From a virus: a stretch of 64,000 nt of DNA. The notes under the pieces are model-generated. The model ran no database searches. It was not told the origin of the DNA and saw nothing but the letters and a program-made list of their open reading frames with translations. Where the stretch lies: the UHGV virus genome UHGV-0010228; one strand, given 5' to 3'. The position numbers were made by a program, and so were the translations under genes. Position 1 is the stretch's first letter; the number at the start of each line of letters is the position of its first letter. Positions 11,517 to 30,358 of this stretch are shown here, piece by piece.

Positions 11517-11532
11517 TAATTTCATTATATTA

Positions 11533-11585: not shown

Positions 11586-11645
11586 TTAGTATATTATTAA
11601 AGTGAATAAATACAACTCATATAGTATAATAAGGAGGAAAATACT
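11565..11645 (+). promoter_or_regulatory. repeated promoter/leader cassette, copy 2
   Basis: Near-identical to 10160-10242. Confidence 0.5.
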
Positions 11646-11935: not shown

Positions 11936-12817
11936 ATGGGAATATTATCTGATTTTGAATATGAAGTATATGAAGCTGAGGAATCTTCAGTGGTAATATC
12001 TGGAATGAATGCTAAATTTGCTAATAAAATAGCTCATAGAATGCCAGAATTAACTAATGGGGATAAGCTTAAGAAAGAAGCTAAAAAGCTTTATAAAGAT
12101 GATCCAGAAGGTGCAATTGCTAAAATGGAAGAAGCACTTGGCTTGTATAGTAAATTATTAGCTAGAATTAATAAACACGATCAGGATCATCCTAATGCTG
12201 CTAAATCGTCATCAAAAGCATATATTGAATACTGTGTTGATTCATGTAGAGCATATTTAATTAAATGGAAAAATCATGATGAAAGAAAAATAAAAGCGAT
12301 CATTAATGATTTAAGAAATGAAAGAGAATCAATTGGTAAATCAACTGAAAGTTGGTACTCTGATTATGGCTATTTAGATACAGAAGCAACAGAAGGACTA
12401 AAAAATAAGATTCTTACAACGACAGATGATTTTAAGAATAAATTTGCGAAACGCCCATCAGGATTCCGTAGTGATGAAGATGCAGTATGGGCATTCTTAC
12501 TTAGTTCTATAGATCAGCATTCTGTTGATAGTAAAGATCTTCAAACAACATTAGATAGTCTTGATAGAGACATTAATTATTTTTGCTATAAAAAGCAGTT
12601 AACCTGTGCTATGAAAAGATATTCAAATTTAATCGACTCTTCAAATAAACCAACCGGTAAAGTTGTACCATATGCAATACTAAATAAGCATGAAAAACCA
12701 TATATGGTAGTATGTATGTGTAATGGTAAATCTGGCGGATTTGCAATATCATATGTATATTCAGTAATTAATGAGGAGCCTCGTAAATCTCAGCTGTTAA
12801 AATTTTTATATGAATAA
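11936..12817 (+). CDS. hypothetical protein, MGILSDFE-leader family (293 aa)
   Basis: N-terminus MGILSDFEYEVYEAEE is shared with the convergent gene 12864-13454. Confidence 0.5.
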   Translation: MGILSDFEYEVYEAEESSVVISGMNAKFANKIAHRMPELTNGDKLKKEAKKLYKDDPEGAIAKMEEALGLYSKLLARINKHDQDHPNAAKSSSKAYIEYCVDSCRAYLIKWKNHDERKIKAIINDLRNERESIGKSTESWYSDYGYLDTEATEGLKNKILTTTDDFKNKFAKRPSGFRSDEDAVWAFLLSSIDQHSVDSKDLQTTLDSLDRDINYFCYKKQLTCAMKRYSNLIDSSNKPTGKVVPYAILNKHEKPYMVVCMCNGKSGGFAISYVYSVINEEPRKSQLLKFLYE

Positions 12818-12819: not shown

Positions 12820-12866
12820 AATAATAAACGTGTAATAGGATTAATCCTATTACACGTTTATTATTA
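12820..12866. terminator. bidirectional terminator between convergent genes
   Basis: Perfect palindrome aataaacgtgtaataggattaatcctattacacgtttatt. Confidence 0.6.
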
Positions 12867-13454
12867 ATTAATTTCTGGTCGTTCATATTCTAATAAATAC
12901 TTAACTAATCCAGATTTATTATACCTGAGAACTCTAGGTTTTCCATATTCTTTCTTTGGTTTCAATACAAATAAATATTTTGTTTCATTCTCATACATAT
13001 CTGATGATGTTATAACCCCAACAAGTACATCATTTACTGTGATATAATTTAATTTAAATGATTTTCTATCAAGATCTCTATTTTTCTTCTTTTCTGGATC
13101 GTAATTTAATTTTTTATTTTCATCATCATATGATAAAGCAGCATTCATATCTGCGATTTTTTCATCTTTAATCAATCCACGAACATAATCTTCCATATAT
13201 TTTTTAGCATTTGGATAGAACCTGTCTACTCCTACACATTTAATGTATCTACTAATTATCTCCTCATTATCTAATTCATAAATTTCATCGAATTTGGCTC
13301 TTTTAGCAGCATTCATTTTACGGTGATTATTGATTTTTTCTTTAAATTTACTAATTAATCCTTCCATAGCATCAATTTCTGAATATTTATTATCATATGA
13401 TTCTTTAGCATCTTTGATCAATTCATTATTTTCAAAATCAGATAATATTCCCAT
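12864..13454 (-). CDS. hypothetical protein, MGILSDFE leader plus internal EIDAMEG|LISKF motif (196 aa)
   Basis: ORF with RBS. Shares motifs with other genes. Confidence 0.5.
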   Translation of the reverse strand: MGILSDFENNELIKDAKESYDNKYSEIDAMEGLISKFKEKINNHRKMNAAKRAKFDEIYELDNEEIISRYIKCVGVDRFYPNAKKYMEDYVRGLIKDEKIADMNAALSYDDENKKLNYDPEKKKNRDLDRKSFKLNYITVNDVLVGVITSSDMYENETKYLFVLKPKKEYGKPRVLRYNKSGLVKYLLEYERPEIN

Positions 13455-13469: not shown

Positions 13470-14756
13470 TTATTTACGCTTTTCTAATTGGTTCATAATT
13501 CTAGCAACATTTCTGTCACTAATTTTTTTATCATAGTTTTTAAGACTAGAACCTTGATTCACTAAATATACATCTTTCATTTTCGTTAAGTCAACAGGTT
13601 TAGTCATTGCTGCACGATCATTAGTCCTTTGATGATCTGAATTCAATATCATCGCAATAAATTCAGAGCAGAAAAGTTTACCTTTAGATTCAGGATTCAT
13701 TCCCATAGCATATTTCACTAATCCTCTAAGATTATATTTTAATTCTTTATCGTTTTTCATGATATTATATAAATTCTTTTTCATTTTAAGATATTCATCA
13801 TGTGGTACAAAAACTGCATATAATGCGTACTTTATGTCTCGTTCCTTAAAGAAAGCGTCTCGAATATCTTCCCTAGTAAACCCATTTGCAAATGGCTTAT
13901 TAGAATATTTAGTACCAAATGAAAATAGTGAATTTAGTGATGTATCAAATGATAATGATGAGTGTGAATATTCATCTTTAGTATACTTCTGTATAGCATT
14001 ACTAAGAGGTGTACCAGTGTGCATAACCAAAACATATACAGGATATAATTTTTCTTTGTAAATTTCATTTTTCGAAGATTCTATAGAATCTTTCTTATAT
14101 GATTTAAGCTTATTTTCAAATTTATTAAGAGCATTATACATATCCCTATACCATGTTGATCTCCAATTTGATCTTGGCTGACCAACATCTTCGAAGAATC
14201 TTTTTAAGCGATTGCTTCCTTCACGAATATTTGCTCTCTTATTTGATGTATATTTAGAAGTCTCTTTAACTATAATAGGATAGTTCTTTACAATATCAAA
14301 TAGTGCAGGATTCATGAATATATCAATGCTTTCAATAACCATTCGCTGATGATTCGAATTTAAAATAAAATGCATAAATTCACGTATAGCAGCAGATCTT
14401 TTAAATATCACTGTATATCTATTAATATCTTTATTATATTTACAGTATTTTGATCCTGGGCCTTTTATCCATGCAACTAAATATTTCGCAATCGGATTCT
14501 TCTTTGATCCTTCATTATCTGTCTTATTTAAATATCTCATAATATCTTCAGCACTAAACCAATCTAAATTAATATGATCACATTTAAATTTATTAGCAAT
14601 TCTTGAAGCAGTTGTACTTTTACCTGATCCAGATAATCCAGTTATAATAAGAACTTTTGCTTCACCACTAACCCATCTATCGTAATCTACATACATATCA
14701 GTTTCAGAGAATAATTGTCGTACCTCTAACGCAGGATCGTAAATCTTATTTTCCAT
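13470..14756 (-). CDS. P-loop NTPase / nucleotide-kinase-like protein (428 aa)
   Basis: Walker A motif VLIITGLSGSGKSTTASRI near the N-terminus. The remainder is unrecognised. Confidence 0.45.
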   Translation of the reverse strand: MENKIYDPALEVRQLFSETDMYVDYDRWVSGEAKVLIITGLSGSGKSTTASRIANKFKCDHINLDWFSAEDIMRYLNKTDNEGSKKNPIAKYLVAWIKGPGSKYCKYNKDINRYTVIFKRSAAIREFMHFILNSNHQRMVIESIDIFMNPALFDIVKNYPIIVKETSKYTSNKRANIREGSNRLKRFFEDVGQPRSNWRSTWYRDMYNALNKFENKLKSYKKDSIESSKNEIYKEKLYPVYVLVMHTGTPLSNAIQKYTKDEYSHSSLSFDTSLNSLFSFGTKYSNKPFANGFTREDIRDAFFKERDIKYALYAVFVPHDEYLKMKKNLYNIMKNDKELKYNLRGLVKYAMGMNPESKGKLFCSEFIAMILNSDHQRTNDRAAMTKPVDLTKMKDVYLVNQGSSLKNYDKKISDRNVARIMNQLEKRK

Positions 14757-14840: not shown

Positions 14841-16202
14841 ATGGAAGAAAAAATATTAGAAATGATGGATTCTGCATTTTTTGATTATAGTGTTGGAAAA
14901 TACTCACGTGATACTTTTGAAGAAAGGTTTGCTAAGATTATTTCATCACTACCATTAAAGAAAAAGAAGAATTTCACAGTTTCTATAATAAATGAAAAAA
15001 ATCGTGAACCATTTTTTGGTTTTAGAATATTTCCAATATCATCATCAATGGATGAAATTGCTAATATAATGGCAGATGAAAAGATTTCATTTAAAGAGTT
15101 ATATAAGCGATGGAGTAATATTGATTCATGGTATATGGAAATAGATGCTAACGTATTTAATCGAACTGTGTGTAATTTCACTCCTAAAGAATTAACAGCA
15201 ATGACTTTACACGAAATAGGTCATACTATATATTCAGATAAATTTTTAGTTACATTATATAATGCATTTAAAGAAGCTAGAGTAAGAATGAAGATTGCGG
15301 ATAAATCTTCATTAAAAGTTTTGTATTCATTATATATGGTACCATTATCTATAGGATGTATGCAGAGAGCATTTGTTAACTCTAAAAATGAAGTAGAGAT
15401 CGAATATTACGCGGATAAAGTATTATCAAAATATGGATATACTGATAGTTTATTATCTGCTTTAGATAAAGTAATTAAAGCATATGGATCTCAGAATCAG
15501 AGTAATGCATCAAAAATGAACGATATTATACAGTCAATTCAGTGGTGTGATCTTAATATAACAGATCTTAATAGACGTAAAGAAAAACTTAAGGATGAGT
15601 TATATTATCAATCTTTAAAGAATGAATCTCATTATTTTAAGGCAATATGCTTCCAAATCTTAAATAAGTTTGGAGTAAGATTGAGAGAAAGATACACAGG
15701 AACTGTAGTTGAGTGTACTTTAGATATTATGTATCCGGATTCTAGATATGGTAACGATAAAGTTCCATGTATGGAATATTATAAATTAATATTAGATCCT
15801 GTTGAAAATGGTAAAATACTTAAGGCGTGGGATTTAAATAGATCTCATTATGGAGTAAGCGAAGCTATCGAAGGTATATTTGGTAGTAGAAATAGAAAAA
15901 ATAAAAAGATCAAATTGCCTTCAACTAGACAATTTGATGAAATTGAAGTTCAGATAAATTACAATATAACTAATTATCATGATAAGTTATTCATATTAGA
16001 TCAGATATATGATTTATCTGATCAGATCGATCTTTATGAAGAAATTTATCAGAATGATCCAGTTGTTATGAAACGTGATAGTGGTAAGATATCTGAATAT
16101 CGAAAGAAATTAGCCAAATTAAGAGCTGCGGTATTACAACAGCCATTACCAGATAATGAATTGAAGTTATTTGTAAAATATCCTAAAGGATATGAAGGAT
16201 AG
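14841..16202 (+). CDS. putative zinc metallopeptidase (HExxH)
   Basis: TAMTLHEIGHTIY contains the HEIGH zincin motif. No other family signature recognised. Confidence 0.35.
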   Translation: MEEKILEMMDSAFFDYSVGKYSRDTFEERFAKIISSLPLKKKKNFTVSIINEKNREPFFGFRIFPISSSMDEIANIMADEKISFKELYKRWSNIDSWYMEIDANVFNRTVCNFTPKELTAMTLHEIGHTIYSDKFLVTLYNAFKEARVRMKIADKSSLKVLYSLYMVPLSIGCMQRAFVNSKNEVEIEYYADKVLSKYGYTDSLLSALDKVIKAYGSQNQSNASKMNDIIQSIQWCDLNITDLNRRKEKLKDELYYQSLKNESHYFKAICFQILNKFGVRLRERYTGTVVECTLDIMYPDSRYGNDKVPCMEYYKLILDPVENGKILKAWDLNRSHYGVSEAIEGIFGSRNRKNKKIKLPSTRQFDEIEVQINYNITNYHDKLFILDQIYDLSDQIDLYEEIYQNDPVVMKRDSGKISEYRKKLAKLRAAVLQQPLPDNELKLFVKYPKGYEG

Positions 16203-16227
16203 TCATTCATTTGTTTTTTTTTTGTTA

Positions 16228-16267
16228 TACATTATATTAATATTATATAATATAAGGAGGTATTATA
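16228..16267 (+). promoter_or_regulatory. conserved promoter plus RBS cassette (ttatacattatattaatattatataatataaggaggtattata) preceding MFDLY-family and MNDII-family genes
   Basis: The same cassette, with its T- or A-run, recurs at about 18294-18345 (minus), 22262-22326 (plus, variant) and 24033-24090 (minus). Confidence 0.5.
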
Positions 16268-17386
16268 ATGTTTGATTTATATAATACATTAGAATCATAT
16301 AATATAATAGATAATGATTATGCATATGAAGGTATTATAGATAAAGTAAAAAATGTAGGTAGTACTATATGGGGATGGTTAAAGAAAATATGGGAAACTA
16401 TAACGAATAAATTAGGAGAATTAGGTAAAAAGATAAAGAAAGCGTGGGAATCTGTTAAAAACTTTATTAAAAATAGAGGAAATAAATCAATAGAAGAAGA
16501 AGATGAAGAAGAACCATATCCAGAAGAAAATGATGAAGATAATTTATCTACTTCTACATCTAATAAATTTGCTAAAGGTAGAGGTAAGAATATAAATAGA
16601 AGAAGATTAAAAAGTGATGATAAAGAAGAAGATAAGTCAGTAGTTAAAAGTTTACCAGAGCCTGAAAAGACTAGTAGATATAAAAGTCCTAAATTAAAAG
16701 GCGGCAAAGTCACAGTAAATCCAGATCCAACCTCAGATGGAAATAAACCTAGAACTCGTATAGTGCGAGCTGGAAACGGTACAAATTATAATGCAATATT
16801 TCATCCAGATGGGAGTTTGAATAGAGAGTTAAATATAGCTATGAAGTTACTTTTAGAAGTGGCAACTCAGATTAATGTTAAATCTAAATGGTACAAAGAA
16901 TTATTATCAGTATATAGTGCTGAAGCAAAAATTGGTGATAAAGTTGGCGATGCAGAAGATCTTGAAGAAAAAACCAACAAAATGCTGCAAAATTCACCCA
17001 TAAATAATGAAGATATTGACGATTATTTAAATGATCTTGAAAATAAAATTTCAAATAAAGGTTATATTAGATTAACATCTAAAATTCCAGGAGTTGAAAA
17101 ATATTATCAAATGATATATACATCAATTTCGAAATTACAACAGTCAACTGGAGTTATATTGAATCAAATAAATAAAAAACTTGGTGAATTTAAAAGTAAA
17201 CATAGTAAATATGAATTTACGGCTAAGAATAGTAATGGCATAAATATGGAGTATATTCGCTTTAAAGGTAGTAAAAGTGGTTCTGATATTCATAAGAGTA
17301 TCCTTGATAATACTAAAAAACTTTCATCATTATATAGTCGTATCATAAGCATTACTTCTAAAATGATAATATCACCAAGCAAATAG
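16268..17386 (+). CDS. MFDLYNTLESYNII-leader family protein 1 (372 aa), putative packaged/internal virion protein with AYE|G processing motif
   Basis: The first 60 nt of the CDS are identical to the 17442-18293 gene and the first 41 nt to the 24128-24979 gene. Lys/Glu-rich middle region. Confidence 0.55.
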   Translation: MFDLYNTLESYNIIDNDYAYEGIIDKVKNVGSTIWGWLKKIWETITNKLGELGKKIKKAWESVKNFIKNRGNKSIEEEDEEEPYPEENDEDNLSTSTSNKFAKGRGKNINRRRLKSDDKEEDKSVVKSLPEPEKTSRYKSPKLKGGKVTVNPDPTSDGNKPRTRIVRAGNGTNYNAIFHPDGSLNRELNIAMKLLLEVATQINVKSKWYKELLSVYSAEAKIGDKVGDAEDLEEKTNKMLQNSPINNEDIDDYLNDLENKISNKGYIRLTSKIPGVEKYYQMIYTSISKLQQSTGVILNQINKKLGEFKSKHSKYEFTAKNSNGINMEYIRFKGSKSGSDIHKSILDNTKKLSSLYSRIISITSKMIISPSK

Positions 17387-17394
17387 ATTAATAA

Positions 17395-17440
17395 TATAAT
17401 AAATAGAATTACCTATATAGGTAATTCTATTTATTATATT
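17395..17440. terminator. bidirectional terminator
   Basis: Palindrome aataaatagaattacctatataggtaattctatttatt between convergent genes. Confidence 0.6.
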
Positions 17441-17441
17441 A

Positions 17442-18293
17442 TTAATCTACAACTTCAGCTTTGACATCAATTGGTTCATCACTAGTTACTTCTGCTCCAG
17501 ATAGATATTTTACAATATTAACAATTATCTGATAAGATTTTTTTAAATTATTTGAAATATTATTTATATGCTCAGTAGCATATTTATTGAATGCAGCATT
17601 GTAATCTTTAGAATTCTCAACTGTTTTATTGAAGTTAATTGATTGGACTACTTTCATATGAGCATCGCACACAGTATATTGATTGTGTAATACAGTACCA
17701 ATACTTTTTAAATTGTGTTCAGATAGCATATAATCATGTGGGGCCAATTTCAATTGCTCACTAACAACACTATACGCATGATCACATCTATCCTTATATT
17801 TACGAATATCTAACACAATATTTTTACTAGATGATTCACGAAGAGCATCCGATTCAACTTTATTGATAGGTACTTCCCCACCCGTGGATGGGTCTGATGT
17901 TTTTGTGATATATTTACAAATCCCTGCTAAATATTTATCTCCCCCAACTACAATTTTTAAATATTTAGCACTGAGATTAACCAATTTTATTATTTTCTTA
18001 CCAGCGTGAATCTTGTTCATCTGTGTACTAGCAATCTTTCTACCTATTTTAGTATTACTAAGTTTAGATTTTAGCGTGGTAATTCCAGTTTTTAATACAC
18101 TCATAATCTTTTTTATAATACCAGCAATAAAACCAACTGCTCTATCTATTATTTTAGCAATTTTTGATGATGCGATCTTAGTTAATTTACCACTTGCAGC
18201 TCTAGCATCGTTATCAATTTCTAAATACCTTTCATATGCATAATCATTATCTATTATATTATATGATTCTAATGTATTATATAAATCAAACAT
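17442..18293 (-). CDS. MFDLYNTLESYNII-leader family protein 2 (283 aa)
   Basis: The N-terminal 20 aa are identical at the nucleotide level to family member 1. The motif is AYE|R. Confidence 0.55.
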   Translation of the reverse strand: MFDLYNTLESYNIIDNDYAYERYLEIDNDARAASGKLTKIASSKIAKIIDRAVGFIAGIIKKIMSVLKTGITTLKSKLSNTKIGRKIASTQMNKIHAGKKIIKLVNLSAKYLKIVVGGDKYLAGICKYITKTSDPSTGGEVPINKVESDALRESSSKNIVLDIRKYKDRCDHAYSVVSEQLKLAPHDYMLSEHNLKSIGTVLHNQYTVCDAHMKVVQSINFNKTVENSKDYNAAFNKYATEHINNISNNLKKSYQIIVNIVKYLSGAEVTSDEPIDVKAEVVD

Positions 18294-18349
18294 TATAATA
18301 CCTCCTTATATTATATATAATATTAATATAATGTATAATAAAAAAAAAA

Positions 18350-18385
18350 CAAATGGTCTATTAATAGACCATTTGTTTAAATTTA
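18350..18385 (-). terminator. rho-independent terminator (hairpin caaatggtctattaatagaccatttg plus T10 on the minus strand)
   Basis: Hairpin followed by a T-run when read on the minus strand, downstream of gene 18388-19086. Confidence 0.6.
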
Positions 18386-18387
18386 CT

Positions 18388-19086
18388 CTAAGCTAATAAC
18401 CTAGAAGGATCCTTAGTACCACCAGTTATAATAACCATTGACTTACTAAGGAATGAAATTCCGGCAGTAATTGATTTTTTAATATATCCGATATATGCAG
18501 TTAAGTTATGACTATCATTTGACTCATTGTATGAACGCTTAGCCTGAACAGCTTTTGTTAAAGTACTTTCAATTGTAGAATCTAAGCTACTAAGAGTCTG
18601 GATACCACTTGAAATTGCAGCTGCAAACTTATCTAAACGTGCAGGTGAATATACATTATTAGCAGTTCTCTTACCAACTTTTTCTCCTAATTCATTCATT
18701 GAGGTTATGTAATTAGAAATTTTATCTCCATAATCTTTTGCATTATCCGCAAAATTCTTACCAGACTTTAATCTACCACTAACAGCCTTAATAGAACCAG
18801 AAATTAACTTTACACCTTTAAGTGACATCTCAACATACTTAATTGGTGCTTTATCATTAATCTTTTCCTGAATCTTAGTTCCGATCTTAGTACTCTTAAG
18901 CTTATTGCTTAATTTGCTAAATTTTTCCTTTAATCCGTTAATTCTGTCTCTGAACCATTTCATTACTGCGGCAACAACTTTATTACTTTTAATTGCAGAA
19001 CCTGCATTAGAAAGTTTATCTTTAATTCCTTCTTCTGCAAGATCGATCTTATAAGATTCTAAAGTTTCAATTACATCGAACATCAT
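18388..19086 (-). CDS. MMFDVIETLESY-leader family protein 3 (232 aa), diverged paralogue
   Basis: N-terminus MMFDVIETLESYKIDLAEE|G. The body has the same predicted helical character as the other members. Confidence 0.5.
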   Translation of the reverse strand: MMFDVIETLESYKIDLAEEGIKDKLSNAGSAIKSNKVVAAVMKWFRDRINGLKEKFSKLSNKLKSTKIGTKIQEKINDKAPIKYVEMSLKGVKLISGSIKAVSGRLKSGKNFADNAKDYGDKISNYITSMNELGEKVGKRTANNVYSPARLDKFAAAISSGIQTLSSLDSTIESTLTKAVQAKRSYNESNDSHNLTAYIGYIKKSITAGISFLSKSMVIITGGTKDPSRLLA

Positions 19087-19098
19087 AATACCTCCTTT

Positions 19099-19908
19099 CT
19101 ACCACTCAAAATCGTCATCGAAATCATCATACTCTTCAAATGCAGAATCGAAGTCGTCATCAAAATCAAACCATGACTCTTCAGCATCTTCATCATCGAG
19201 ATCTTCATCGTCGTCATCTTTCTTCTTTTTTCTACCAAAAAGCTTCTTTCTCTTTTTAGACTTCTTATTATCTTCATCATCCGATTCATCAGAATCTACA
19301 TCTTCATCGAGATCTTCATCTTCATCATCGCCCTTTTTCTTTTTCTTGAGCTTTTCCTTAGCCTTACTAATGATACCTTCCATTGCAAGAAGCATAACTT
19401 CTTCATCATCAAGACCTGTAGATTCACCAGCAGCATGAACTAAAGTTCCTGCCTTACCCCAACTGCCATCTCCAGGGAAATCAGTAAGTTCCTGATATCT
19501 TTCTTCAGCAAGAGTTTTACAACCAGCAAGAAGTTCTTTAATAGCAGCTAATTCTTCATACTCAATATCATCACTGTCGCTAACAACTCCAGCAGGCATA
19601 AGCTTAAGAGCTTTACACTGAGCCTTTAACTTAGCTGCACCATTTGATATGATAGCGTGAGCATCTTCCTTACTAATAAGGCCTGAATTACATTCTCCAT
19701 AAGCATTCTGAATTTCGGTGATTAATTCATTAAATTCAACAATCTCGTGAGATATATCATCTAAGAAATTCTTTGCCTGTTCAGGAGTTGTAAGACTAGA
19801 AGCAATATTACTTCTAATGATCTTTAACAGATCGCTAACTCTCGTTTCTGCATGACAGAAGAAACCTTCATCAGCGATATCAAAATCATTGAAATCGTCG
19901 TAATACAT
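19099..19908 (-). CDS. highly acidic protein (269 aa) with N-terminal ADE|G motif and C-terminal EESWFDFDDDFD motif
   Basis: Contains DEDEDLDEDVDSDESDDED, basic KKRKK patches, and an aromatic-acidic C-terminus shared with the 33806-34693 gene. Confidence 0.5.
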   Translation of the reverse strand: MYYDDFNDFDIADEGFFCHAETRVSDLLKIIRSNIASSLTTPEQAKNFLDDISHEIVEFNELITEIQNAYGECNSGLISKEDAHAIISNGAAKLKAQCKALKLMPAGVVSDSDDIEYEELAAIKELLAGCKTLAEERYQELTDFPGDGSWGKAGTLVHAAGESTGLDDEEVMLLAMEGIISKAKEKLKKKKKGDDEDEDLDEDVDSDESDDEDNKKSKKRKKLFGRKKKKDDDDEDLDDEDAEESWFDFDDDFDSAFEEYDDFDDDFEW

Positions 19909-20059
19909 TAATTTATTCCTCCTTTTTAATAGGATATTTAACTTTTAAAATTTATATTCTTTTAAATTTTTATTTATATGTTTTAGCATATAAAACCAAT
20001 TAATATTTAGTTCTAGAGTAATTCTTACATCTATAAATATGAGCAAATTATAAATCGTA

Positions 20060-20095
20060 CTATAAATAAATATATTTATATATTTATTTATAGCA
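20060..20095. promoter_or_regulatory. 34-bp perfect AT palindrome in a divergent promoter region
   Basis: ctataaataaatatatttatatatttatttatag lies between divergent genes 19099-19908 (minus) and 20132-22222 (plus). Confidence 0.35.
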
Positions 20096-20131
20096 ACTTA
20101 TTGTGTTGTCTATAGAAAGGAGATTTATAAT

Positions 20132-22222
20132 ATGGCTTTTTATAGATGTGATAGAGGATTAGGATTTGATACTAGTAATAGTACAGGAAATAGTAGTGAT
20201 GTATTGTATCCAATTAAATATAATGAATATTCAACGGGACAAATTCGCAATATAATCTTAACTACATTACAATCAAATTTCGCTTTTGAATCAACTTTCT
20301 GTTATAACTGTTATAATAAGAATGATTTTAATTTTAAATTAGATTGTAATGAAACCGACATTAGAAAAGATGTGAGCATATATGATATTGTAGGATCACG
20401 CAAATTTGTACCTAGAGTAAATTTTAAAGAATTTAGATCTAGTAAATATTCCGAAATATTTAACGGCATTAATGATACATGTGATATTATTAGTGATATA
20501 TATGAAGATTCTATATTTATATTTATAGCTCTAAATACAACAATAATTTTAGTGATTACTGATATGAATTTAAACATCATTTCAAGAGAAAAGTTTGATA
20601 TCTCAAATCTATTTATAAATTTGATATCTGAGAATTATAAAAATGAAATTGATAACATTTGGTCAGAAATTAAAAAATATATTAAAAATCCGATATCATA
20701 TGCTTTTAATGATTGTGATGATGCTGAAGTTCCAACATTAATCGAGTCTCTATTTAAAATAAAAAAATCGGATTGTTCTTATTTTAAATATCTGCCAATA
20801 ATTGACAAATTTGATATTGATCTTAATGATAAATTTTCTGATAGCTTTATACACTCAGATTTGGTCGATATGCGTATAGGTACAGGTCAAAACGAAATAA
20901 TTGACAATCTCATATTCATTGACGATAAGATTATATTTAAAGGATTTATCTACGTAATACTCCGCACTGAAGATGATATCCCTATAAAATTGGAATATAA
21001 GTTTAAAAATGCTGATCAGACATATTTAAATACATCTATTAAATATTCAAGGAGATCATCTAGTATTATATCATATACATATATCCTCGATGTACTATAT
21101 GAATATGATATAATATCAAAAAAAATAACTATCAAAAAACATAATCGTCTAAACCCAAATACAGATTCTATTAATGATATTTATGCTATGGAACCATATA
21201 TTACACAATATCAAACACTAAGATCATACGACCCTAACAGATTTTCTAAATATGTCAATTCAACGGGTAAATACATACAATCTTCTCAATTGTATTATTT
21301 TTATTCTCCAGACAAGTGTCAATTAATACAATATGACATTGCAAGCTGTTCTATAATTTCTACTACAAAAGATGATAAGGTAAGTAATCCAACATATGAT
21401 AGTTTTTATTATGATACGAAATCTAATATAATATATATCGTTGATACATATTATGATTCTTCGATACAGGTCAGCCGTTTCACGAATAATTTAGATAAGA
21501 TATCATCGTTTTCTGTATCAATGAACGGAATCGAGTTGGATTCTCCTTTTTTAAAAATAAACGACCCTAATTTGACAAACACGGCATATAGAAAAATATA
21601 TTTACGAAATGCCAGTACTAATAATACTGCTAAATCATATGGTATATTCGTAGAGAATGACATAATTAACTTTTTTGTAACTATAGATCGAGTATGTCAG
21701 AATCCTATTAAAATTGTTGGAAATTCATGTCATATTGCCAATCTTAGAATTTCGTGCGATACAGGCAATCTAATCGATATACAATCTCCAAATACTCAAC
21801 AGTTTAACTCGAACTTTAAAAATGTTCAATGTCTCAAGACATTGAACACCGAGATAATGTCAACTAATGACATTATTGATCATATATTTAGAGTATCGGT
21901 ATATCGTATTTCTAATGAATACGTAGGACGTTTACACTATCGATTAGGGAAGATGAGTGACACATATAAATTAAATATTGATTATATATTTACCGGTGTA
22001 TATAACACGATATGTCATATAATTATTCGAAATAATGGATTGTATTTCACATTACTAATAAAAAATCAATATTCGAATCTAACCGATTATGAAAATATCA
22101 ATTCTTATAATGTCATAATTAATCCATCTACTCTTTATCTTCTTAATGATTATGATACTAACTATAATGGTTATAATATAGATTCTTCTAATTCTAATTA
22201 TACAGATTACTATTTTAATTAA
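20132..22222 (+). CDS. large hypothetical protein (696 aa, Asn/Ile/Tyr-rich)
   Basis: Long ORF with aaaggag RBS. No motif recognised. Confidence 0.55.
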   Translation: MAFYRCDRGLGFDTSNSTGNSSDVLYPIKYNEYSTGQIRNIILTTLQSNFAFESTFCYNCYNKNDFNFKLDCNETDIRKDVSIYDIVGSRKFVPRVNFKEFRSSKYSEIFNGINDTCDIISDIYEDSIFIFIALNTTIILVITDMNLNIISREKFDISNLFINLISENYKNEIDNIWSEIKKYIKNPISYAFNDCDDAEVPTLIESLFKIKKSDCSYFKYLPIIDKFDIDLNDKFSDSFIHSDLVDMRIGTGQNEIIDNLIFIDDKIIFKGFIYVILRTEDDIPIKLEYKFKNADQTYLNTSIKYSRRSSSIISYTYILDVLYEYDIISKKITIKKHNRLNPNTDSINDIYAMEPYITQYQTLRSYDPNRFSKYVNSTGKYIQSSQLYYFYSPDKCQLIQYDIASCSIISTTKDDKVSNPTYDSFYYDTKSNIIYIVDTYYDSSIQVSRFTNNLDKISSFSVSMNGIELDSPFLKINDPNLTNTAYRKIYLRNASTNNTAKSYGIFVENDIINFFVTIDRVCQNPIKIVGNSCHIANLRISCDTGNLIDIQSPNTQQFNSNFKNVQCLKTLNTEIMSTNDIIDHIFRVSVYRISNEYVGRLHYRLGKMSDTYKLNIDYIFTGVYNTICHIIIRNNGLYFTLLIKNQYSNLTDYENINSYNVIINPSTLYLLNDYDTNYNGYNIDSSNSNYTDYYFN

Positions 22223-22229
22223 TAAAAAA

Positions 22230-22280
22230 TACATACTATCTATAATAGATAGTATGTATTTAGTTTAGTTTTTTTTTTCA
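22230..22280 (+). terminator. rho-independent terminator
   Basis: Hairpin aatacatactatctataatagatagtatgtatt followed by a T10 run. Confidence 0.6.
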
Positions 22281-22326
22281 TATACATTATATTAATTATA
22301 ATTTATAGAAAGGAGTATATTATATA

Positions 22327-22896
22327 ATGTTTGATCTATATAATACACTTGTTGCATATGAGGGATTATTAAAGAATGCATATAATAGTTATAAAACTAA
22401 TATAAACAATGCAAATCTTATGCGAAAAATCGAGAAAACTATTGAAAAGTCATCTGAGTTTTATTTGAAGTTTATTGGTGAGGGTGATGATAAAACTAAA
22501 GAGGAAGCTGCTAATTTTTTTGAAAAGTGGGCACAATTATGTTACTCCAATACGATTAAATTTAATAAATCAATATTTTTAAAAGGATATGTAAATAAAT
22601 ATGAGTATTTACTAAAGGGTGGATATGCTGAACGATATGGATTAACATCTGAAACCCAATTAAATCCGGATAATCCCATGATGCAAGATATATTAAATGA
22701 TGCTTATCTTGGAATTATTGAAAAGCTATCATATAAAGGTCAACTTGTATATCTCATGGGCACTCCAGATAACTATATTTATTACTTTACTGATGATAAA
22801 GGAAATTTTGTCATGAAATATAATGATGAAATGTTGGATGAAATTATAAAGTACTATCAGAATAATATTGATGAGTATAATGCAAAGTTCAAATAA
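22327..22896 (+). CDS. MFDLYNTL-leader family protein 4 (189 aa; MFDLYNTLVAYE|G)
   Basis: Shared N-terminal motif and a variant of the promoter cassette. Confidence 0.5.
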   Translation: MFDLYNTLVAYEGLLKNAYNSYKTNINNANLMRKIEKTIEKSSEFYLKFIGEGDDKTKEEAANFFEKWAQLCYSNTIKFNKSIFLKGYVNKYEYLLKGGYAERYGLTSETQLNPDNPMMQDILNDAYLGIIEKLSYKGQLVYLMGTPDNYIYYFTDDKGNFVMKYNDEMLDEIIKYYQNNIDEYNAKFK

Positions 22897-22910
22897 AGGA
22901 GGTATTATAT

Positions 22911-23405
22911 ATGAATGATATAATAGTAATGGAAGGATTAATTTCTAAAATGAGAAATCGTTTAAAATTGAAAAAGATTAAAAAGAATTCTGCACCTTAT
23001 AAAGAAATAACTCATGATGAATTTATAAAAAATTATTTAAATAAAATTAAAAAATGCCAAAATTTAATGTGGACAAATATGATGAAATTAAAATCGAAGT
23101 ATCCTATGATAACTAAAATGATTTCTAAGCGTAGTGATAATGAAATGATAGTTCCGGTAAATGATGTTCATATAAACACTTATGTGTATTTAATAGATTA
23201 TGATGGATCAAATGTTGAATCACATGAGAAGCAATATTCAAATTTTGATAGATCTGAATTAGAACCAGCTCTATCAGAAATTGCTAAGGAATGTGTTGAT
23301 AAAATATTTGGTAATGATTCAAATATTGGTTATGATGAAGGTGGAGATTATAAAGAAGTCTGCTATGGAATTGTATTTAGAGATACTTTTATACATGTAA
23401 ATTAA
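22911..23405 (+). CDS. MNDIIVMEG|LI-leader family protein A (164 aa)
   Basis: N-terminus shared with the convergent gene 23457-24032. Confidence 0.5.
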   Translation: MNDIIVMEGLISKMRNRLKLKKIKKNSAPYKEITHDEFIKNYLNKIKKCQNLMWTNMMKLKSKYPMITKMISKRSDNEMIVPVNDVHINTYVYLIDYDGSNVESHEKQYSNFDRSELEPALSEIAKECVDKIFGNDSNIGYDEGGDYKEVCYGIVFRDTFIHVN

Positions 23406-23410
23406 TAATA

Positions 23411-23456
23411 TATAACGTTTAGTGATATTTATCACTAAACGTTATATATTATTAAT
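23411..23456. terminator. bidirectional terminator
   Basis: Palindrome aatatataacgtttagtgatatttatcactaaacgttatatatt. Confidence 0.6.
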
Positions 23457-24032
23457 TTAGTTTCTTTTTCCATATAAGATCTCGGACAATTCATCTGAAC
23501 CCATATTCGGAATTTGAATCACAAGAGGGCCACCATCCCAATCTCCACCATATTCGTATTTCATATTATCGATACCATATTTATCAATTGCCGATTCAAT
23601 AATCATATCAATTGCTTTCCACGTCTGATTATATCTAGGATCATCGCCCCATTCTCGAACATTTATAGATTTATCATATTTTAGTATTTCATAAATGTCA
23701 TAATCTATAATGGTATATTCAATATTATTGTCATATGTTGATAATACATTTTCGTTTTCGACATATCCAACTAATTTAAATATATATTTAGCTTCTGGGT
23801 ATTTCTTTATAAGATTATTATATTCTCTTTTAACTTCATTATATATCTTAATAAATATAGGTTTATATTTAGATCTAAATTCATCTAAAGATATATTTTT
23901 AATATTATTAGATTTAGAATTATTATTAATATATCTAGATTTAGTCTGATTATTAGTAGCGTAAGCCTTATTTTTATTTATTTTATCTCTTAATCTCTTT
24001 ATTAATCCTTCCATTACTATTATATCATTCAT
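23457..24032 (-). CDS. MNDIIVMEG|LI-leader family protein B (191 aa)
   Basis: Preceded on the minus strand by the same promoter cassette as the MFDLY genes. Confidence 0.5.
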   Translation of the reverse strand: MNDIIVMEGLIKRLRDKINKNKAYATNNQTKSRYINNNSKSNNIKNISLDEFRSKYKPIFIKIYNEVKREYNNLIKKYPEAKYIFKLVGYVENENVLSTYDNNIEYTIIDYDIYEILKYDKSINVREWGDDPRYNQTWKAIDMIIESAIDKYGIDNMKYEYGGDWDGGPLVIQIPNMGSDELSEILYGKRN

Positions 24033-24067
24033 ATATAATACCTCCTTATATTATATATAATATTAAT

Positions 24068-24100
24068 ATAATGTATAATAAAAAAACAAGTGAATGACTA
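24068..24100 (-). terminator. rho-independent terminator (gtgaatgactaatattagtcattcac plus T7 on the minus strand)
   Basis: Hairpin followed by a T-run, downstream of gene 24128-24979. Confidence 0.55.
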
Positions 24101-24127
24101 ATATTAGTCATTCACTATTATTAACTA

Positions 24128-24979
24128 TTATATTGCCATCATCTTTGCAATTTCATCTGGGTTAAGAATTTTAATTTTAGTCATAGTCGTAAGTGTCCAT
24201 TTACATAAATTTGAAATTTGTGCGGTTATATTTTTTAGCGCTTTAGTATATTCATCCGTTAATTCATGAATATTCTCAAATTTAGTTACTCGATTTTCAA
24301 TCACTTTAAATTCATATACACATTTCATTATATTTGTATATACAGCTTTATACTCATCGAGTGAATCGACTAAATCCACCTCAAGAGTAAAAGTGTCAAC
24401 TTCATCAAGAGCATTATTAAGTCTGTTAATAATTACTGGAGCTGACTTTGTATCATAATGAATAAGATAGTCTCTTACATCAGCTTCAAACTTTCCAGTT
24501 TTATATAATTCATTGGGATTATCTAAAAATTTTACATAATTTCGGGTATATTGAAGAGTTTCTCTTAGCCATTTATTTGTCTGTTTAAGTTCATACTTTA
24601 TTTTATCAGTCAAAGTTTTAATTTTTTCTTTCTCTTCTTTTCGAGTTCTTTCCACTTCATCAACTATATTACGTCTCTTTCTGTTATTTACTCTTTTTTG
24701 TTCATTCGGTTTATTATCTTCATTACCTCTAGTTTCACTCTCATTCATTTTTTCATTCGTCTTACCTTTCATATTCTTTATCATTAAATATACTTTCTTT
24801 ATCTTTCTACCTAATAATATAAATCCATTCTTTATTCCTTCCCATATCTTCTTTATAACAGACCATATACCTTTACCTACATTCTTTACTTTATCTATGA
24901 TACCTTCATAAGAGGGTTCTAATTCTCCCCCCCCCCCAATTATATTATATGATTCTAATGTATTATATAAATCAAACAT
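24128..24979 (-). CDS. MFDLYNTLESYNII-leader family protein 5 (283 aa) with a GGGG insertion encoded by a G11 tract
   Basis: The first 41 nt are identical to family member 1. DNDYAY is replaced by GGGGELEPSY, followed by the shared EGIIDKVKNVG. The gene is probably co-transcribed with the protease gene upstream. Confidence 0.55.
   Translation of the reverse strand: MFDLYNTLESYNIIGGGGELEPSYEGIIDKVKNVGKGIWSVIKKIWEGIKNGFILLGRKIKKVYLMIKNMKGKTNEKMNESETRGNEDNKPNEQKRVNNRKRRNIVDEVERTRKEEKEKIKTLTDKIKYELKQTNKWLRETLQYTRNYVKFLDNPNELYKTGKFEADVRDYLIHYDTKSAPVIINRLNNALDEVDTFTLEVDLVDSLDEYKAVYTNIMKCVYEFKVIENRVTKFENIHELTDEYTKALKNITAQISNLCKWTLTTMTKIKILNPDEIAKMMAI
24927..24937. repeat. C11/G11 homopolymer inside coding sequence (candidate slipped-strand contingency site)
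   Basis: Eleven consecutive C on the plus strand in a genome that is about 30% GC. They encode GGGG in the leader of gene 24128-24979. Confidence 0.6.
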
Positions 24980-24991
24980 TATAATACCTCC

Positions 24992-25849
24992 TTAGAGATT
25001 CTTCATGAAGTCCATAATTTCACGATTATATTTTAATTCTGGCTTTACAAAGATTCTACCTTCATCAGTTCTCATTGTAATCATATTAGAAGATCTATCA
25101 TATGCAACAGATTCTAGAGCTGGATTCATCTCATCAATAACCCTATTAACTCTTTCAGACTTACTTAATACTATATCAGTAAATGATTCCATGACAGTTT
25201 CGAATTTATTTTTAGATACAATATTCTTAACTGGAATATCCATGTCCATATATGCATTAGAATGTGATGGTAAGTATACTCTATCGTAGCAAACCAATCT
25301 ACCAGGACCCATAACATCTATTGTGCCATCAGGGTTTTTTCTCTGAGGTACTAACGATCTAGCAGAAAATGCTCCTCTAATGCCTTGTAATATATTTCTC
25401 ATAAATTTATATCCAGGAGATCCAACACCTTCATCAAGCGTCTCTACAACACCATGGAGTTCTTTACCTCTCCACTCTAATGATTTAATAATATGAGAGC
25501 AATTATTAGGATCTATATTAGCAATTCTCTCCAATGAAACTTCACCAGTTGTTGGAATTGGATGTCCTGCTTCGCCTGGCCATCCACCTGCTTTAGTTAA
25601 GAATTCCTGTACGAATTCCTGAGCTAACATAGTTCTTACATGATCTGCATTCCAAAGTCTTCTATTTCTATTTCTTCCATAGAAATCCTGTAAGCAAGTT
25701 GAGAATCTTAAGTAATTAAGTCCATTTTCATTTTCAACATGTTTGAGTATTTCTATATTATCATTCTGTGGCATAGCAGCTTCCATTACCACATAATAAT
25801 CTAAATAACGTTCATCATTAGGATTAAATTTCGGCATAATGATAAACAC
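24992..25849 (-). CDS. putative prohead maturation protease (T4 gp21 / phiKZ gp175-like)
   Basis: GEAGHPIP and GIRGAFSARSL blocks are reminiscent of the His and Ser regions of the gp21 family. It sits immediately upstream of, and is co-oriented with, a leader-family gene. Confidence 0.4.
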   Translation of the reverse strand: MFIIMPKFNPNDERYLDYYVVMEAAMPQNDNIEILKHVENENGLNYLRFSTCLQDFYGRNRNRRLWNADHVRTMLAQEFVQEFLTKAGGWPGEAGHPIPTTGEVSLERIANIDPNNCSHIIKSLEWRGKELHGVVETLDEGVGSPGYKFMRNILQGIRGAFSARSLVPQRKNPDGTIDVMGPGRLVCYDRVYLPSHSNAYMDMDIPVKNIVSKNKFETVMESFTDIVLSKSERVNRVIDEMNPALESVAYDRSSNMITMRTDEGRIFVKPELKYNREIMDFMKNL

Positions 25850-27778: not shown

Positions 27779-28495
27779 ATGGGTTTAGTTAATGATTTTC
27801 TCTTTACTTACGCATTAGAAGCTGATGATATTACAGGAGAAGCTCAGGCTGGTGCTAGACAAATTGCCGGTGGACCAAATCCTGCCGGTGGACCAGGTGC
27901 TAATGCAAATGTTGGAGATGAACCAGATGACATATCTAAAACAGATGATATATTTGGTACTGCAGGATCAGATGATGATCCAATAAATGGAAATACTAAT
28001 AATGCTCAGAATTTAAATCAGAATCCACAAAATAATATGAATAATAATGATCCATTTGGTAATGATTCTAATAATATGGGAAATAATGATCCCAATGATG
28101 GTGGATTTGGTGATACAAATAATTCTTCGATGGATGATGGATTTGGAGAAAATAATGAGCAGGATAAATCCGATCCTCCATATTATGATAAGAATAAGTT
28201 AAAAAATAATATGCTGTATTTATACAATTTAACAAATTCATCAAATGATGCTATTGTAGAATTAAGATCAAAATTGAACGATCCTAGTAGTATCAAAGTA
28301 TGTAATATGGTAAATTCTAATTTAACTGCTCTTAGCGATTGTATATATGAAACAATTACTGATAAAATAGCTAATGCTACATATCAAGATATGCTTAGAG
28401 AGTATATATCATTTAAACGTATATATGACCTATGTACGGAAATAATGAATAAACATTTTGATAATGCGATTAAAGATAAGAAAAAGAAAAAATAA
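27779..28495 (+). CDS. hypothetical low-complexity (Gly/Asn/Asp-rich) protein with helical C-terminus; possible scaffold-like protein
   Basis: Composition, and its position directly upstream of an abundant structural-protein gene. Confidence 0.3.
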   Translation: MGLVNDFLFTYALEADDITGEAQAGARQIAGGPNPAGGPGANANVGDEPDDISKTDDIFGTAGSDDDPINGNTNNAQNLNQNPQNNMNNNDPFGNDSNNMGNNDPNDGGFGDTNNSSMDDGFGENNEQDKSDPPYYDKNKLKNNMLYLYNLTNSSNDAIVELRSKLNDPSSIKVCNMVNSNLTALSDCIYETITDKIANATYQDMLREYISFKRIYDLCTEIMNKHFDNAIKDKKKKK

Positions 28496-28600: not shown

Positions 28601-30358
28601 ATGTTAGATAAGACAATTTATAATGACGTTGTAGGTAATGCTCAGTATGCAGATTCAGATGCTGGGTTTAAGTCAGAAGTTAGATCAATCTTCGAAGCAT
28701 ATGCTAATGAAGGTGTTAACCTGACTGACAATATCGGATCTGTAATTTCAGATGCACATCTTAGAGAAGACTTCATAGGTTCTATCTGCGAATCACTCGC
28801 AGCTTCACCTCTCTTCACTAATGCTGATGCTGCAAATGCACCTTTCTATAACAACTATGGTGCAAGAGTTGAGCAGTTACTTAGCAACACACTTAAGTCT
28901 GTAGCTGCAGAATCTGTAATGTATGGTTATGCTCCTATCGTTGCATACAACCCATTCTTCCTCAAGAAGCAGTGGATCGATTGTATCTTCAAGGATGTCC
29001 TCATGACAGAAATTCCTAAGACTCCAGTTATCAATCTCGGTTTCGAGAGAAGATATCTTAAGGATCTTGATGGTGAAAGATATCCACTTCCAGAAGCTCT
29101 CTATGATGATGAAATCGTAAAGAAGCTCATGGATGCATCAACTGGTCTTAACCTTACAGAAGAAGCAATTGATATTAATGATTGTAAGCAGCTTTATCTT
29201 ATAGATCAGAAGTATATCCCAGGCGTTAATGTAAATGATAAGTCAGTAGAAATCACTCCAAATATTTGTGTTTGGAAGGTTATGCTTGCTGGTGCAGATG
29301 GCGAAATCGAACTTCCGGTAAACATGACAGTTGATGTTACTACTCATAACTTCATTAATACTTCAATCAAGTTTGATGTAAAGGATGAAACTACTGGTGA
29401 AGTTAAGGAAACAATTGAAGATCAGCTCGTTGGTCATATGAACTTCAGAGATGCTAAGCTCACTCTTATGTCAACAACTGGTAAGGTTACAAAGGTATTC
29501 CTTAGAGGTAAAATTGCAAATAGATGGAACCAGAGATCACTGGATGTAGAAAGAACTGTAGAACACATTCAGAAGACAATGCCAGAATCTGGTCCAAGAC
29601 TGAACTCTTCAATCACTGTTGAAGATGCTGCAGATGCACTTGCTCTTCAGAATATTGACCAGATCTCAGATAACATCAATATCATGGGTGCTACTCTGGC
29701 TAACCTGGAAGATGCTGAAATTAATATGTTCCTTAAGAACTCATTTGAAGCTCAGAAGAAGGTTGCTGAAACAGGCGTTCTTTACAATGAACTTGGTGAT
29801 AATGTAATGATCGCTGAAGGTAACTTCAATACTCTTCCATATGAAACATTCAATGGTAGAATTTCTGAATGGCAGAAGGATGCAAGAGAATACTTCGAAA
29901 GAATGCTCTCTGCTCTTAAGATTAAGCTCCGTTCTCAGAATATGCTCTTCGTTGCAGTTTCACATCCAAATACTGTTAGATATCTCCAGGATGGTATCAA
30001 CTGGGTATTCTCAGATGACACTCAGATCGGCGGTGTAAGACTTAACTATAACTTTGGTATTTACACAACTGCACAGGATAGAGTTCATATCGTAACAACT
30101 CAGAGAATGGCTGAATCTGAAGGTATTAGATTCATTGGTATCCCTCTGACTCAGGAACTCATCACATTCAAGCACTATAAGTACAATGTAATTATTGATA
30201 GAGGATACAGAAACCCTCTGACTCCTCTCACTCCAAATATTATGGCTACTCAGAGAACTCTCACATTTGAAATATTCCCAGTTCAGGGTGTAATGACAAT
30301 TGAGGGTAGAGAACTCTTCTCACCTGATAGCCTTAAGAGAAAGACTGTTACGCCCTAA
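28601..30358 (+). CDS. abundant virion structural protein (585 aa), candidate major capsid protein; ends at the CCC_UAA +1 shift site
   Basis: Codon usage shifts to aag/ttc/atc/ctc codons, typical of highly expressed genes. Strong aaaaggagg RBS. Confidence 0.45.
   Translation: MLDKTIYNDVVGNAQYADSDAGFKSEVRSIFEAYANEGVNLTDNIGSVISDAHLREDFIGSICESLAASPLFTNADAANAPFYNNYGARVEQLLSNTLKSVAAESVMYGYAPIVAYNPFFLKKQWIDCIFKDVLMTEIPKTPVINLGFERRYLKDLDGERYPLPEALYDDEIVKKLMDASTGLNLTEEAIDINDCKQLYLIDQKYIPGVNVNDKSVEITPNICVWKVMLAGADGEIELPVNMTVDVTTHNFINTSIKFDVKDETTGEVKETIEDQLVGHMNFRDAKLTLMSTTGKVTKVFLRGKIANRWNQRSLDVERTVEHIQKTMPESGPRLNSSITVEDAADALALQNIDQISDNINIMGATLANLEDAEINMFLKNSFEAQKKVAETGVLYNELGDNVMIAEGNFNTLPYETFNGRISEWQKDAREYFERMLSALKIKLRSQNMLFVAVSHPNTVRYLQDGINWVFSDDTQIGGVRLNYNFGIYTTAQDRVHIVTTQRMAESEGIRFIGIPLTQELITFKHYKYNVIIDRGYRNPLTPLTPNIMATQRTLTFEIFPVQGVMTIEGRELFSPDSLKRKTVTP

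Follow-up and report, generated by a model that had tools for sequence, protein, structure and literature searches.

Recombining N-terminal leaders on candidate internal head proteins of an uncultivated phiKZ/AR9-like gut phage

A stretch of 64,000 nucleotides (nt) from the virus genome UHGV-0010228 (hereafter the window) belongs, judged by gene content and comparison of the major capsid protein (MCP), to an uncultivated phiKZ/AR9-like jumbo phage from human gut metagenomes. Seven genes between 16.2 and 25 kb of the window carry one of two short N-terminal leaders, MFDLYNTL… (n = 5) or MNDIIVME (n = 2), and the leader genes surround genes for a gp21-type prohead protease, a scaffold-like protein and the MCP. 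We consider it likely that they encode internal head proteins, of the core or the ejection type, whose leader targets them to the prohead and is removed by the protease. Near-identical genomes reveal recent gene conversion and shuffling of cassettes, and at this locus the head module, stable elsewhere, has a hypervariable accessory region.

In the mechanism that we propose, the proteins would at first carry at the N-terminus a short acidic/aromatic leader (8-25 residues), which would recruit them to the assembling prohead core. The neighbouring gp21-type protease would cut after Glu in A/S/V-x-E, usually before Gly-Ile/Leu, and would leave a mature, mostly basic protein starting with an amphipathic helix. 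Frequent homologous recombination and gene conversion between copies keep the leader, the ribosome-binding site (RBS) and, in four genes, a promoter-like cassette identical at the DNA level, and the same repeats act as crossover points at which whole genes are gained or lost and C-terminal parts exchanged. Prohead targeting, cleavage, ejection and the promoter activity of the cassette are steps that we infer from sequence.

Leader genes and their setting in the head module

All seven open reading frames named in the original prediction exist, with the N-termini given there. Gene 16268 (16268-17386, plus strand; genes are named by their first coordinate) encodes a 372-residue basic protein in which the leader MFDLYNTLESYNIIDNDYAYE↓G (16268-16330; the arrow marks the proposed cut) is followed by an amphipathic helix, GIIDKVKNVGSTIWGWLKKIWE. 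Gene 17442 (17442-18293, minus strand) encodes a 283-residue basic paralog with the 16268 leader for 63 nt; it ends AYE↓R, the Arg resulting from a compensated 1-nt insertion and deletion. The other MFD genes are 18388 (18388-19086, minus strand), a 232-residue basic paralog with leader MMFDVIETLESYKIDLAEE↓G and start MMFDVIETLESY; 24128 (24128-24979, minus strand), which lies directly downstream of the protease gene and encodes a basic 16268 paralog of 283 residues, leader MFDLYNTLESYNIIGGGGELEPSYE↓G; and 22327 (22327-22896, plus strand), a 189-residue acidic protein with the short leader MFDLYNTLVAYE↓G and a body unlike those of the other members. The two MNDIIVME↓GLI proteins have 164 residues (22911-23405, plus strand, downstream of 22327) and 191 residues (23457-24032, minus strand).

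The bodies behind the leaders had been described as unrelated or only distantly related, which overstates their divergence. Proteins 16268 and 24128 are 42% identical over 135 residues, and 17442 and 18388 are 34% identical over 127 residues (E 8e-6), so that the MFD proteins, four of the five, belong to a single paralog family that diverges fast, with an N-terminal module of leader plus helix in common and C-terminal parts that vary. The exception, 22327, has nothing but the 12-residue leader in common with the other MFD proteins. Proteins 22911 and 23457 are likewise paralogs (28% over 170 residues), and the MNDII family has five homologs. The picture of variable, unrelated cargo behind a constant leader is overstated: most of the cargo is one fast-evolving paralog family with a conserved N-terminal module and a variable C-terminal part. 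A HMMER search of 1.84 billion representative proteins with 18388 returned only itself, and a concatenated-leader query against a 5.8-billion protein set returned one truncated allele only and was of no use for cataloguing cargo. A structure model of 23457 has an N-terminal helix, a disordered linker and an alpha/beta domain; the single-sequence model of 22327 was too poor for use (predicted local distance difference test score, pLDDT, 53).

The family also extends beyond 16200-25000, where it had originally been placed. A third DNA-identical leader, MGILSDFE, is shared for 25 nt including the ATG by 11936 (11936-12817, plus strand; 293 residues, leader MGILSDFEYEVYEAEE↓S) and 12864 (12864-13454, minus strand; 196 residues, MGILSDFE…EIDAME↓GLISKFKEK), with differing upstream regions, which brings the window to three leader types on nine genes; leader-like sites occur in 4405, 34708 and 47045 as well. 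The source genome (256,540 bp) holds at least two further MFD-leader genes outside the window, P0018 and P0021, and 16268 is a mosaic with these paralogs. In a more distant relative, L005 (MCP 56% identical), two genes (13978-14334 and 21072-21626) have in common a leader of their own, …(F/S)(I)(S/N)YCDDMMIAEE↓(A/G), which recalls the T4 capsid-targeting sequence (CTS) ending IAE↓A; across the clade the leader principle is conserved and the sequence is not.

The protease gene inside the cluster (24992-25849, minus strand), noticed already in the original prediction, is of the T4 gp21/phiKZ gp175 type: it matches PHROG 3014 (E 1e-10), the T4 gp21 structure PDB 5JBL (E 4.7e-4) and, by tblastn, AR9-group proteases (E 1e-17), as well as Pfam S77 (E 9e-5, 22.4 bits, the cut-off of 27 not being reached) and S80 (E 0.011). 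The gene order protease (minus), 602-residue virion protein (plus), acidic scaffold-like protein (plus) and MCP (plus) mirrors AR9 g114-g117. The scaffold-like protein (27779-28495, plus strand; 238 residues, acidic) occupies the position of AR9 g116 and has an N-terminal ALE↓ADDIT site conserved in relatives; the MCP (28601-30358, plus strand; PHROG 20655, E 5e-39) has a candidate maturation site, A/V-x-E↓S, at about residue 103. The window further contains genes for an RNA polymerase beta subunit (multisubunit type), a terminase and a tail sheath. Its MCP is only ~24% identical to those of AR9/PBS1, Staphylococcus S6/PALS_2, Listeria LPJP1 and Yersinia phiR1-37. Megablast of the 10-kb region against a phage genome collection gave no nucleotide match, and an exact leader search of IMG/VR none either; the close relatives are human gut metagenome assemblies of 223-256 kb.

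A candidate cleavage site at the leader end

Most leaders end in A/S/V-x-E↓G-I/L (AYE, SYE, AEE and VME); every leader had been expected to end in x-E↓G, from which 17442 departs. Within their first 35 residues the 56 window proteins show the pattern [ASV]xEG[IL] 10 times, as against 5 times in the other 16,093 positions, a 16-fold enrichment. Outside 16200-25000, N-terminal sites are found in 12864, in 4405 (4405-4824, plus strand; 139 residues, MHNDIEAME↓GLIKKFKE, as in the MNDII leader), in 34708 (34708-35415, plus strand; 235 residues, YATE↓GIF at residue 15, with an internal DIEAME↓GVIKWLKEK) and in 47045 (47045-47665, minus strand; 206 residues, MNYTVALEEINNYEHVLE↓GISVSEIFNKFVDWLKAIW, cut after HVLE, with the leader-plus-helix layout of 16268). 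Of the five internal sites, three fall within members of the same cluster: 19099 (LLAME↓GIISK), 14841 (AIE↓GIFGSR) and 11936 (ATE↓GLKNK). In the MCP, A/V-x-E↓S directly precedes the conserved core and is itself conserved across the window and six relatives, with LQE↓S there in AR9; ANE↓G near MCP residue 37 was rejected as a cleavage site because it is not conserved in relatives.

These motifs resemble those of phiKZ-type proteases, which cut at S/A/G-x-E or A-x-E, and the SPN3US PF12699 protein gp53 matures at AAQE↓GWKETLK, with Gly followed by an amphipathic helix (PMC5694885, PMC7411985). The counterpart here is AYE↓GIIDKVKNVGSTIWGWLKKIWE. Matches to PF12699 (phiKZ_IP) were obtained for 18388 (20.7 bits, E 2.7e-4), 24128 (14.5 bits, E 0.02) and the AR9 protein g096 (E 0.002), all of them below the gathering score of 27 bits, and each match starts at profile positions 88-92, with the residue that follows the predicted cut; 16268, 17442 and 22327 have no PF12699 match. 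Aligned by hhalign against phiKZ gp92-96, the family gave a non-significant match (probability 1.7%, E 0.029) that sets TLESYN…SYE↓G on phiKZ ALENYD…ISLE↓D. Only five alignment columns never vary among five phiKZ internal head proteins, and S154 and E156 at this site are two of them. The leader motif would thus stand in register with the invariant phiKZ S-x-E site, as an argument from alignment register only. The predicted mature forms of 16268, 17442, 18388 and 24128 have isoelectric points of 9.4-10.

Selection on the peptide is indicated by the diverged leaders. Compared with 16268, the leader of 18388 has synonymous codon differences at F, T, S and I, and that of 22327 at L, L, E and G; both keep MFD..TL..Y..E-G. 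Five proteins with 33-74% identity in their other parts all have the same MNDII leader, except for V/A at position 6. This conservation bears on the view that the identical 5' ends merely reflect crossovers at regulatory cassettes that reach into the first codons, the N-terminal peptide playing no part in targeting or cleavage. Such a by-product has precedent in the shuffling at promoter-early stem-loop elements (PeSLs) of T4-like phages (PMC2839356), the modules here are insulated by terminators, and the genome offers an example: a second, unrelated cassette of ~95 nt at 10157-10258 and 11560-11661, consisting of a T-run, an early-promoter-like GTATATTATTAAAGTG, an RBS and the first codons MRNIE, precedes the small genes 10243-10533 and 11646-11843. 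We nevertheless regard it as unlikely, since diverged copies differ by synonymous changes that preserve the leader residues, the MNDII leader stays constant at a body identity of 33%, three members have a leader without the promoter cassette, and x-E↓G-I/L is found internally and on proteins with unrelated leaders besides being enriched at N-termini. Regulatory cassettes of a modular kind appear to be general in this genome.

A leader could also be a signal for another destination (membrane or secretion, a replication compartment, an assembly chaperone), or a scaffold or core binder that is not removed. The non-consensus residue after the cut in 17442 fits this, as does a structure model of an MNDII protein in which residues 3-19 are predicted to form one helix across the proposed cut. 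We think this rather improbable, given that the leader is acidic/aromatic without signal-peptide features and always ends in a protease-type motif, that the genes are interleaved with those for the protease, the scaffold-like protein and the MCP, some being co-transcribed with the protease, and that the putative alignment places the motif in register with the invariant S-x-E of phiKZ internal head proteins.

Several points weigh against packaged and processed head proteins. The PF12699 scores and the hhalign result lie below their thresholds, as given above; Arg instead of Gly follows Glu in 17442; the MNDII 'leader' is only 8 residues long; and V at P3, the third position before the cut, is outside the published S/A/G or L/I rules. 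Moreover, the MRNIE cassette drags identical codons along, so recombination alone can yield 5' identity.

Two acidic proteins may belong among the substrates. Gene 19099 (19099-19908, minus strand) encodes a 269-residue protein with IADE↓G at residue 14, the internal site LLAME↓GIISKAKEK, and AACA-N6-TA upstream; its product is a candidate core or scaffold-type protease substrate, and 18388 is probably co-transcribed with it. Products of both 19099-19908 and 34708-35415 have Lys/Asp/Glu-rich tails, an internal DIEAME↓G(V/I)I motif and a leader-like site at their own N-terminus, and are candidate scaffold or core proteins cut at several sites. Positions 14841-16202 encode a 453-residue protein with a HEIGH zincin-type motif and the internal site AIE↓GIFGSRNRKNKK, which may be a packaged, processed metalloprotease; in AR9 a 'zincin protease' (g118) adjoins the MCP gene.

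Gene conversion between near-identical genomes

Identity between leaders at the DNA level runs from the RBS to 32-63 nt inside the coding sequence. It is exact and ungapped for 24 nt upstream plus 63 nt of coding sequence between 16268 and 17442, for 15 plus 41 nt between either of these and 24128, and for 15 plus 32 nt between 22911 and 23457; 41-60 nt of coding sequence had been noted for 16268, 17442 and 24128.

Comparison with relatives reveals the process behind this identity. The 235-kb contig L012 is 99.91% identical to window positions 6771-27386 over 20,624 nt, and all differing columns fall within 16309-16351, a stretch of 43 nt in the distal leader of 16268. Here L012 has a 24128-type patch (poly-G plus ATTAGAACCCTCT, and a G at 16351), as opposed to the 17442-type AGATAATGATTATGCA of the window; L008 and L009 carry the L012-type patch in their 16268 ortholog. 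A single 43-nt conversion tract as the sole difference between two 20.6-kb stretches is an evolutionary process caught in action. L008 and L009 have flanks 99% identical to the window and are without 22327, 22911 and 24128, and their 23457 ortholog is only 82% identical; the indel endpoints between window and L008 coincide with gene and cassette borders. A 189-residue gene of L008 was considered as an inverted copy of 22327 and rejected, BLAST identifying it as the ortholog of 23457.

Concerted evolution is apparent in L010, which together with L011 (~90% identical) carries an MNDII/MFD/MNDII trio at another locus, beside tail-fibre genes. In L010 both MNDII paralogs have leader codons peculiar to their lineage (GCT, GGT); they match each other at 34 of 36 positions and the window copies at 31 of 36. 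In the interval L010 9948-10000, divergent MNDII (minus) and MFD (plus) genes lie 53 nt apart with both RBSs and one AT-rich near-palindromic TTATATTAATTATATATATT between them, which may be a bidirectional promoter. The region replaced in L010 by the one with the trio is 61.9-63.8 kb of the window, just downstream of a G10-N8-C9 hairpin at 61466-61492; this hairpin directly follows a 1033-residue fibre-like gene and resembles polyG/polyC stem-loops described for PeSLs.

Longer tracts are seen with other paralogs: 16268 is ~99% identical at the DNA level to the P0003/P0018 gene for ~450 nt and ~55% thereafter, and 100% identical to the P0005/P0021 gene for ~145 nt, with identity then at random level. 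Abrupt breakpoints at ~41, 63, 145 and 450 nt match the expectation for repeated conversion tracts seeded in a shared 5' cassette. They speak at the same time against the conserved DNA being an expression element (an unstructured initiation region, a 'downstream box' or a regulatory RNA), with selection on the nucleic acid and not on the peptide, because tracts that end variably, from 41 to ~450 nt, are typical of conversion and not of a fixed element. The 100-nt RNA of 5' untranslated region plus leader is slightly less structured than shuffles (z +0.88), as would suit an open initiation region; neither an Rfam family nor a stable RNA structure was found for it, however, and diverged copies keep amino acids and not nucleotides, so that we judge an expression element to be very unlikely.

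That the repeats are collapsed or chimeric artefacts of metagenome assembly, which the original prediction had named as a possible refutation, is hardly credible. Repeats do break assemblies, as contig L014 starts exactly inside a cassette, but gene order and leaders recur in the independent assemblies L012, L008 and L009, from different samples and, going by contig naming, apparently different assemblers. Furthermore, the L008/L012 patch copies no other leader in the genome, being without AGA and having another G count, and L008 is without the putative donor gene.

Terminators and promoter-like cassettes

A common cassette had been reported before most of the genes, and its 25-nt core TTATACATTATATTAATATTATATA is indeed present in exactly three copies, at 16225 (plus), 18314 (minus) and 24054 (minus), before 16268, 17442 and 23457 (0 occurrences in 100 shuffles), with a variant before 22327. 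Only these four of the seven leader genes have a private terminator/T-run/CATTATATTAAT cassette; 18388, 22911 and 24128 have only RBS plus leader and start 12-14 nt after the upstream gene. What stays constant is RBS plus leader; the predicted promoter-like element is an add-on.

Each cassette sits after a terminator hairpin and T-run, and where two genes converge they end in a perfect palindromic terminator; 15 terminator-like sites were counted where 3.4 are expected. Before 16268, positions 16208-16267 (plus strand) comprise a T-run, the CATTATATTAAT promoter-like cassette and the RBS AAGGAGGT, with a half-copy (tagtcattca) of the 24116-24089 terminator stem just upstream. The elements upstream of 17442 (18294-18378, minus strand; terminator hairpin 18378-18347) and of 23457 (24033-24116, minus strand; terminator hairpin 24116-24089) each consist of RBS, promoter-like cassette, T-run and hairpin, and 22227-22326 (plus strand), before 22327, has a hairpin (22227-22261), a T-run, the variant cassette and an RBS. 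A perfect palindromic bidirectional terminator (17395-17438) separates the convergent genes 16268 and 17442, and the arms of another (23405-23452) contain the stop codons of 22911 and 23457. This layout defines the units cassette-16268, 19099-18388, cassette-17442, variant cassette-22327-22911, protease-24128 and cassette-23457.

In ~200 kb of related sequence, CATTATATTAAT occurs only before leader genes, the sole exception being an orphan copy at window position 11523. The AR9 late promoter motif AACA-N6-T(A/G) (PMC5312081) lies at -80 to -16 of 11 of 52 window genes, compared with 3.2±1.7 in shuffles, among them the genes for protease (AACA-N6-TA at -30), MCP and sheath, and 19099, an enrichment that makes late promoters of the AR9 kind probable for this phage. 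The cassette differs at one position from this motif, with TACA-N6-TA, and has the TATATTA core of the AR9 early consensus without fitting that consensus. Its ACA is not kept in L010 and it fits neither AR9 promoter class clearly, which counts likewise against the proposed scheme; we infer a promoter dedicated to the leader-gene family that matches no AR9 class clearly. Sigma-70-like matches are not enriched in the window (125 against 117±9), a scan that is uninformative in AT-rich DNA. Early-like AAATATATTAT-N6-G sites occur at 10580, 53183 (minus), 39593 and 6267. The promoter motifs suggest AR9-like transcription by two RNA polymerases in a gut phage, and possibly uracil-containing DNA.

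A poly-G tract between leader and body

The most unusual detail of the system is a poly-G tract. On the coding strand of the 24128 leader a G11 homopolymer (24927-24937, minus strand) lies in frame; it is one of only three G/C runs of at least 7 in the window, the other two forming the G10/C9 hairpin at 61466-61492. The 16268 orthologs have G9 in L008 (10003-10011) and L009, and G11 after AT in L012 (9539-9549). All three are one base out of frame and yield peptides of 17 residues (L012) or 22 residues (L008/L009), and gene callers report truncated or TTG-start products of this ortholog in at least five assemblies; an in-frame poly-G allele of it was not found among the assemblies examined. 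Other truncated alleles, P0017/P0019 and P0023, arise through shifts at short G/A runs. The window copy of 16268 is restored in frame by the 17442-type patch.

Variation in poly-G length could reflect hypermutable switching, pseudogenisation or homopolymer error, and the identical G9 in two independent samples argues against pure error. A speculative and in our estimation improbable extension is that the G9-G11 tract between leader and body of 16268/24128-type genes is a slippage-prone switch that couples and uncouples cargo and capsid-targeting leader. If so, an in-frame gene product would be packaged, one G more or fewer would leave only a leader peptide of 17-22 residues, and a phage population would contain virions of differing internal-protein loads. 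Gene conversion from a sister leader, as in window 16268, would lock the gene ON, and phase variation would act on virion contents and not on receptor-binding proteins.

Comparison with known systems

Three groups of known elements resemble the leader genes. The internal protein (IP) loci of T4 likewise place a short N-terminal leader (10-20 residues in T4) on otherwise dissimilar proteins, and are small hyperpolymorphic loci with conserved promoter and stem-loop flanks and with gene sets that differ between close phages. T4 IPs are non-essential and mostly basic and lose their leader after Glu to the gp21-type prohead protease, to which we liken the leader genes here. T-even IPs share a short CTS removed by gp21 and include anti-restriction cargo (PMC2839356, PMC12373910, PMC5694885), and promoter/stem-loop elements were proposed to mediate shuffling at their loci (Repoila 1994, as summarised in PMC2839356 and PMC12373910). 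No sequence homology to T4 IPs was seen, there being no PHROG or Pfam match to IP families. The motif here is A/S/V-x-E↓G, nearer the phiKZ/SPN3US rule, and not L/I-x-E; moreover, the lineage is phiKZ/AR9-like, at least three leader types exist, most proteins are paralogs with a conserved N-terminal helix, and the cassette is not a T4-type promoter.

PeSLs of T4-like phages are, as here, repeats of terminator stem-loop, promoter and RBS that flank variable open reading frames; they shield these from neighbouring transcription and supply the homology by which near-identical genomes come to differ through insertion, deletion and replacement (PMC2839356, PMC4122927). They differ in being sigma-70-like early elements before any ORFans, whereas the cassette described here is limited to leader-bearing head genes and the identity extends into the coding sequence.

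The PF12699 proteins of phiKZ-like phages (phiKZ gp93-95, 162 and 163; SPN3US gp53/gp54) are, as here, multi-copy, fast-diverging paralogs whose number varies between phages. These internal head proteins are processed by the gp175/gp245 protease at S/A/G-x-E or A-x-E, and SPN3US gp53 and gp54 have the same 15 N-terminal residues although only 34% identical overall, a situation that the authors liken to the T4 CTS (PMC5694885, PMC7411985). In AR9/PBS1 the head module (g096, g112-g117) has the same gene order around protease and MCP, and g096, an annotated virion protein, combines …LLNE↓GLSNGLKKIIKKL with a weak PF12699 match, as here; the AR9 stretch that we examined is, unlike the window, without repeated leader cassettes. 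Unlike the ~125-residue propeptides of SPN3US, the leaders here are of T4 length (8-25 residues), and phiKZ-like propeptides described so far are mostly long. We know of no description of DNA-level identity, a dedicated cassette or between-strain conversion for the phiKZ-like PF12699 family. The window differs from the known systems in its T4-length leaders in a phiKZ/AR9-like phage, at least three DNA-identical leader types, a dedicated cassette, strain-level conversion and the poly-G tract.

The fast-turnover candidate injected proteins are prime anti-defence suspects, like T4 Ip1-3, which inhibit GmrSD enzymes, and a leader of 8-25 residues with a predictable cleavage site could become a tag that carries foreign proteins into the capsids of jumbo phages. 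Phylogenetically, the PF12699 paralogs of phiKZ-like phages stand nearest, with a family membership score below threshold here, and by analogy the T-even IP loci appear to be the closest functional paradigm. On this comparison, the T4 'leader plus protease' loading logic would recur, with recombination-prone cassettes, in a distant uncultivated phiKZ/AR9-like gut lineage.

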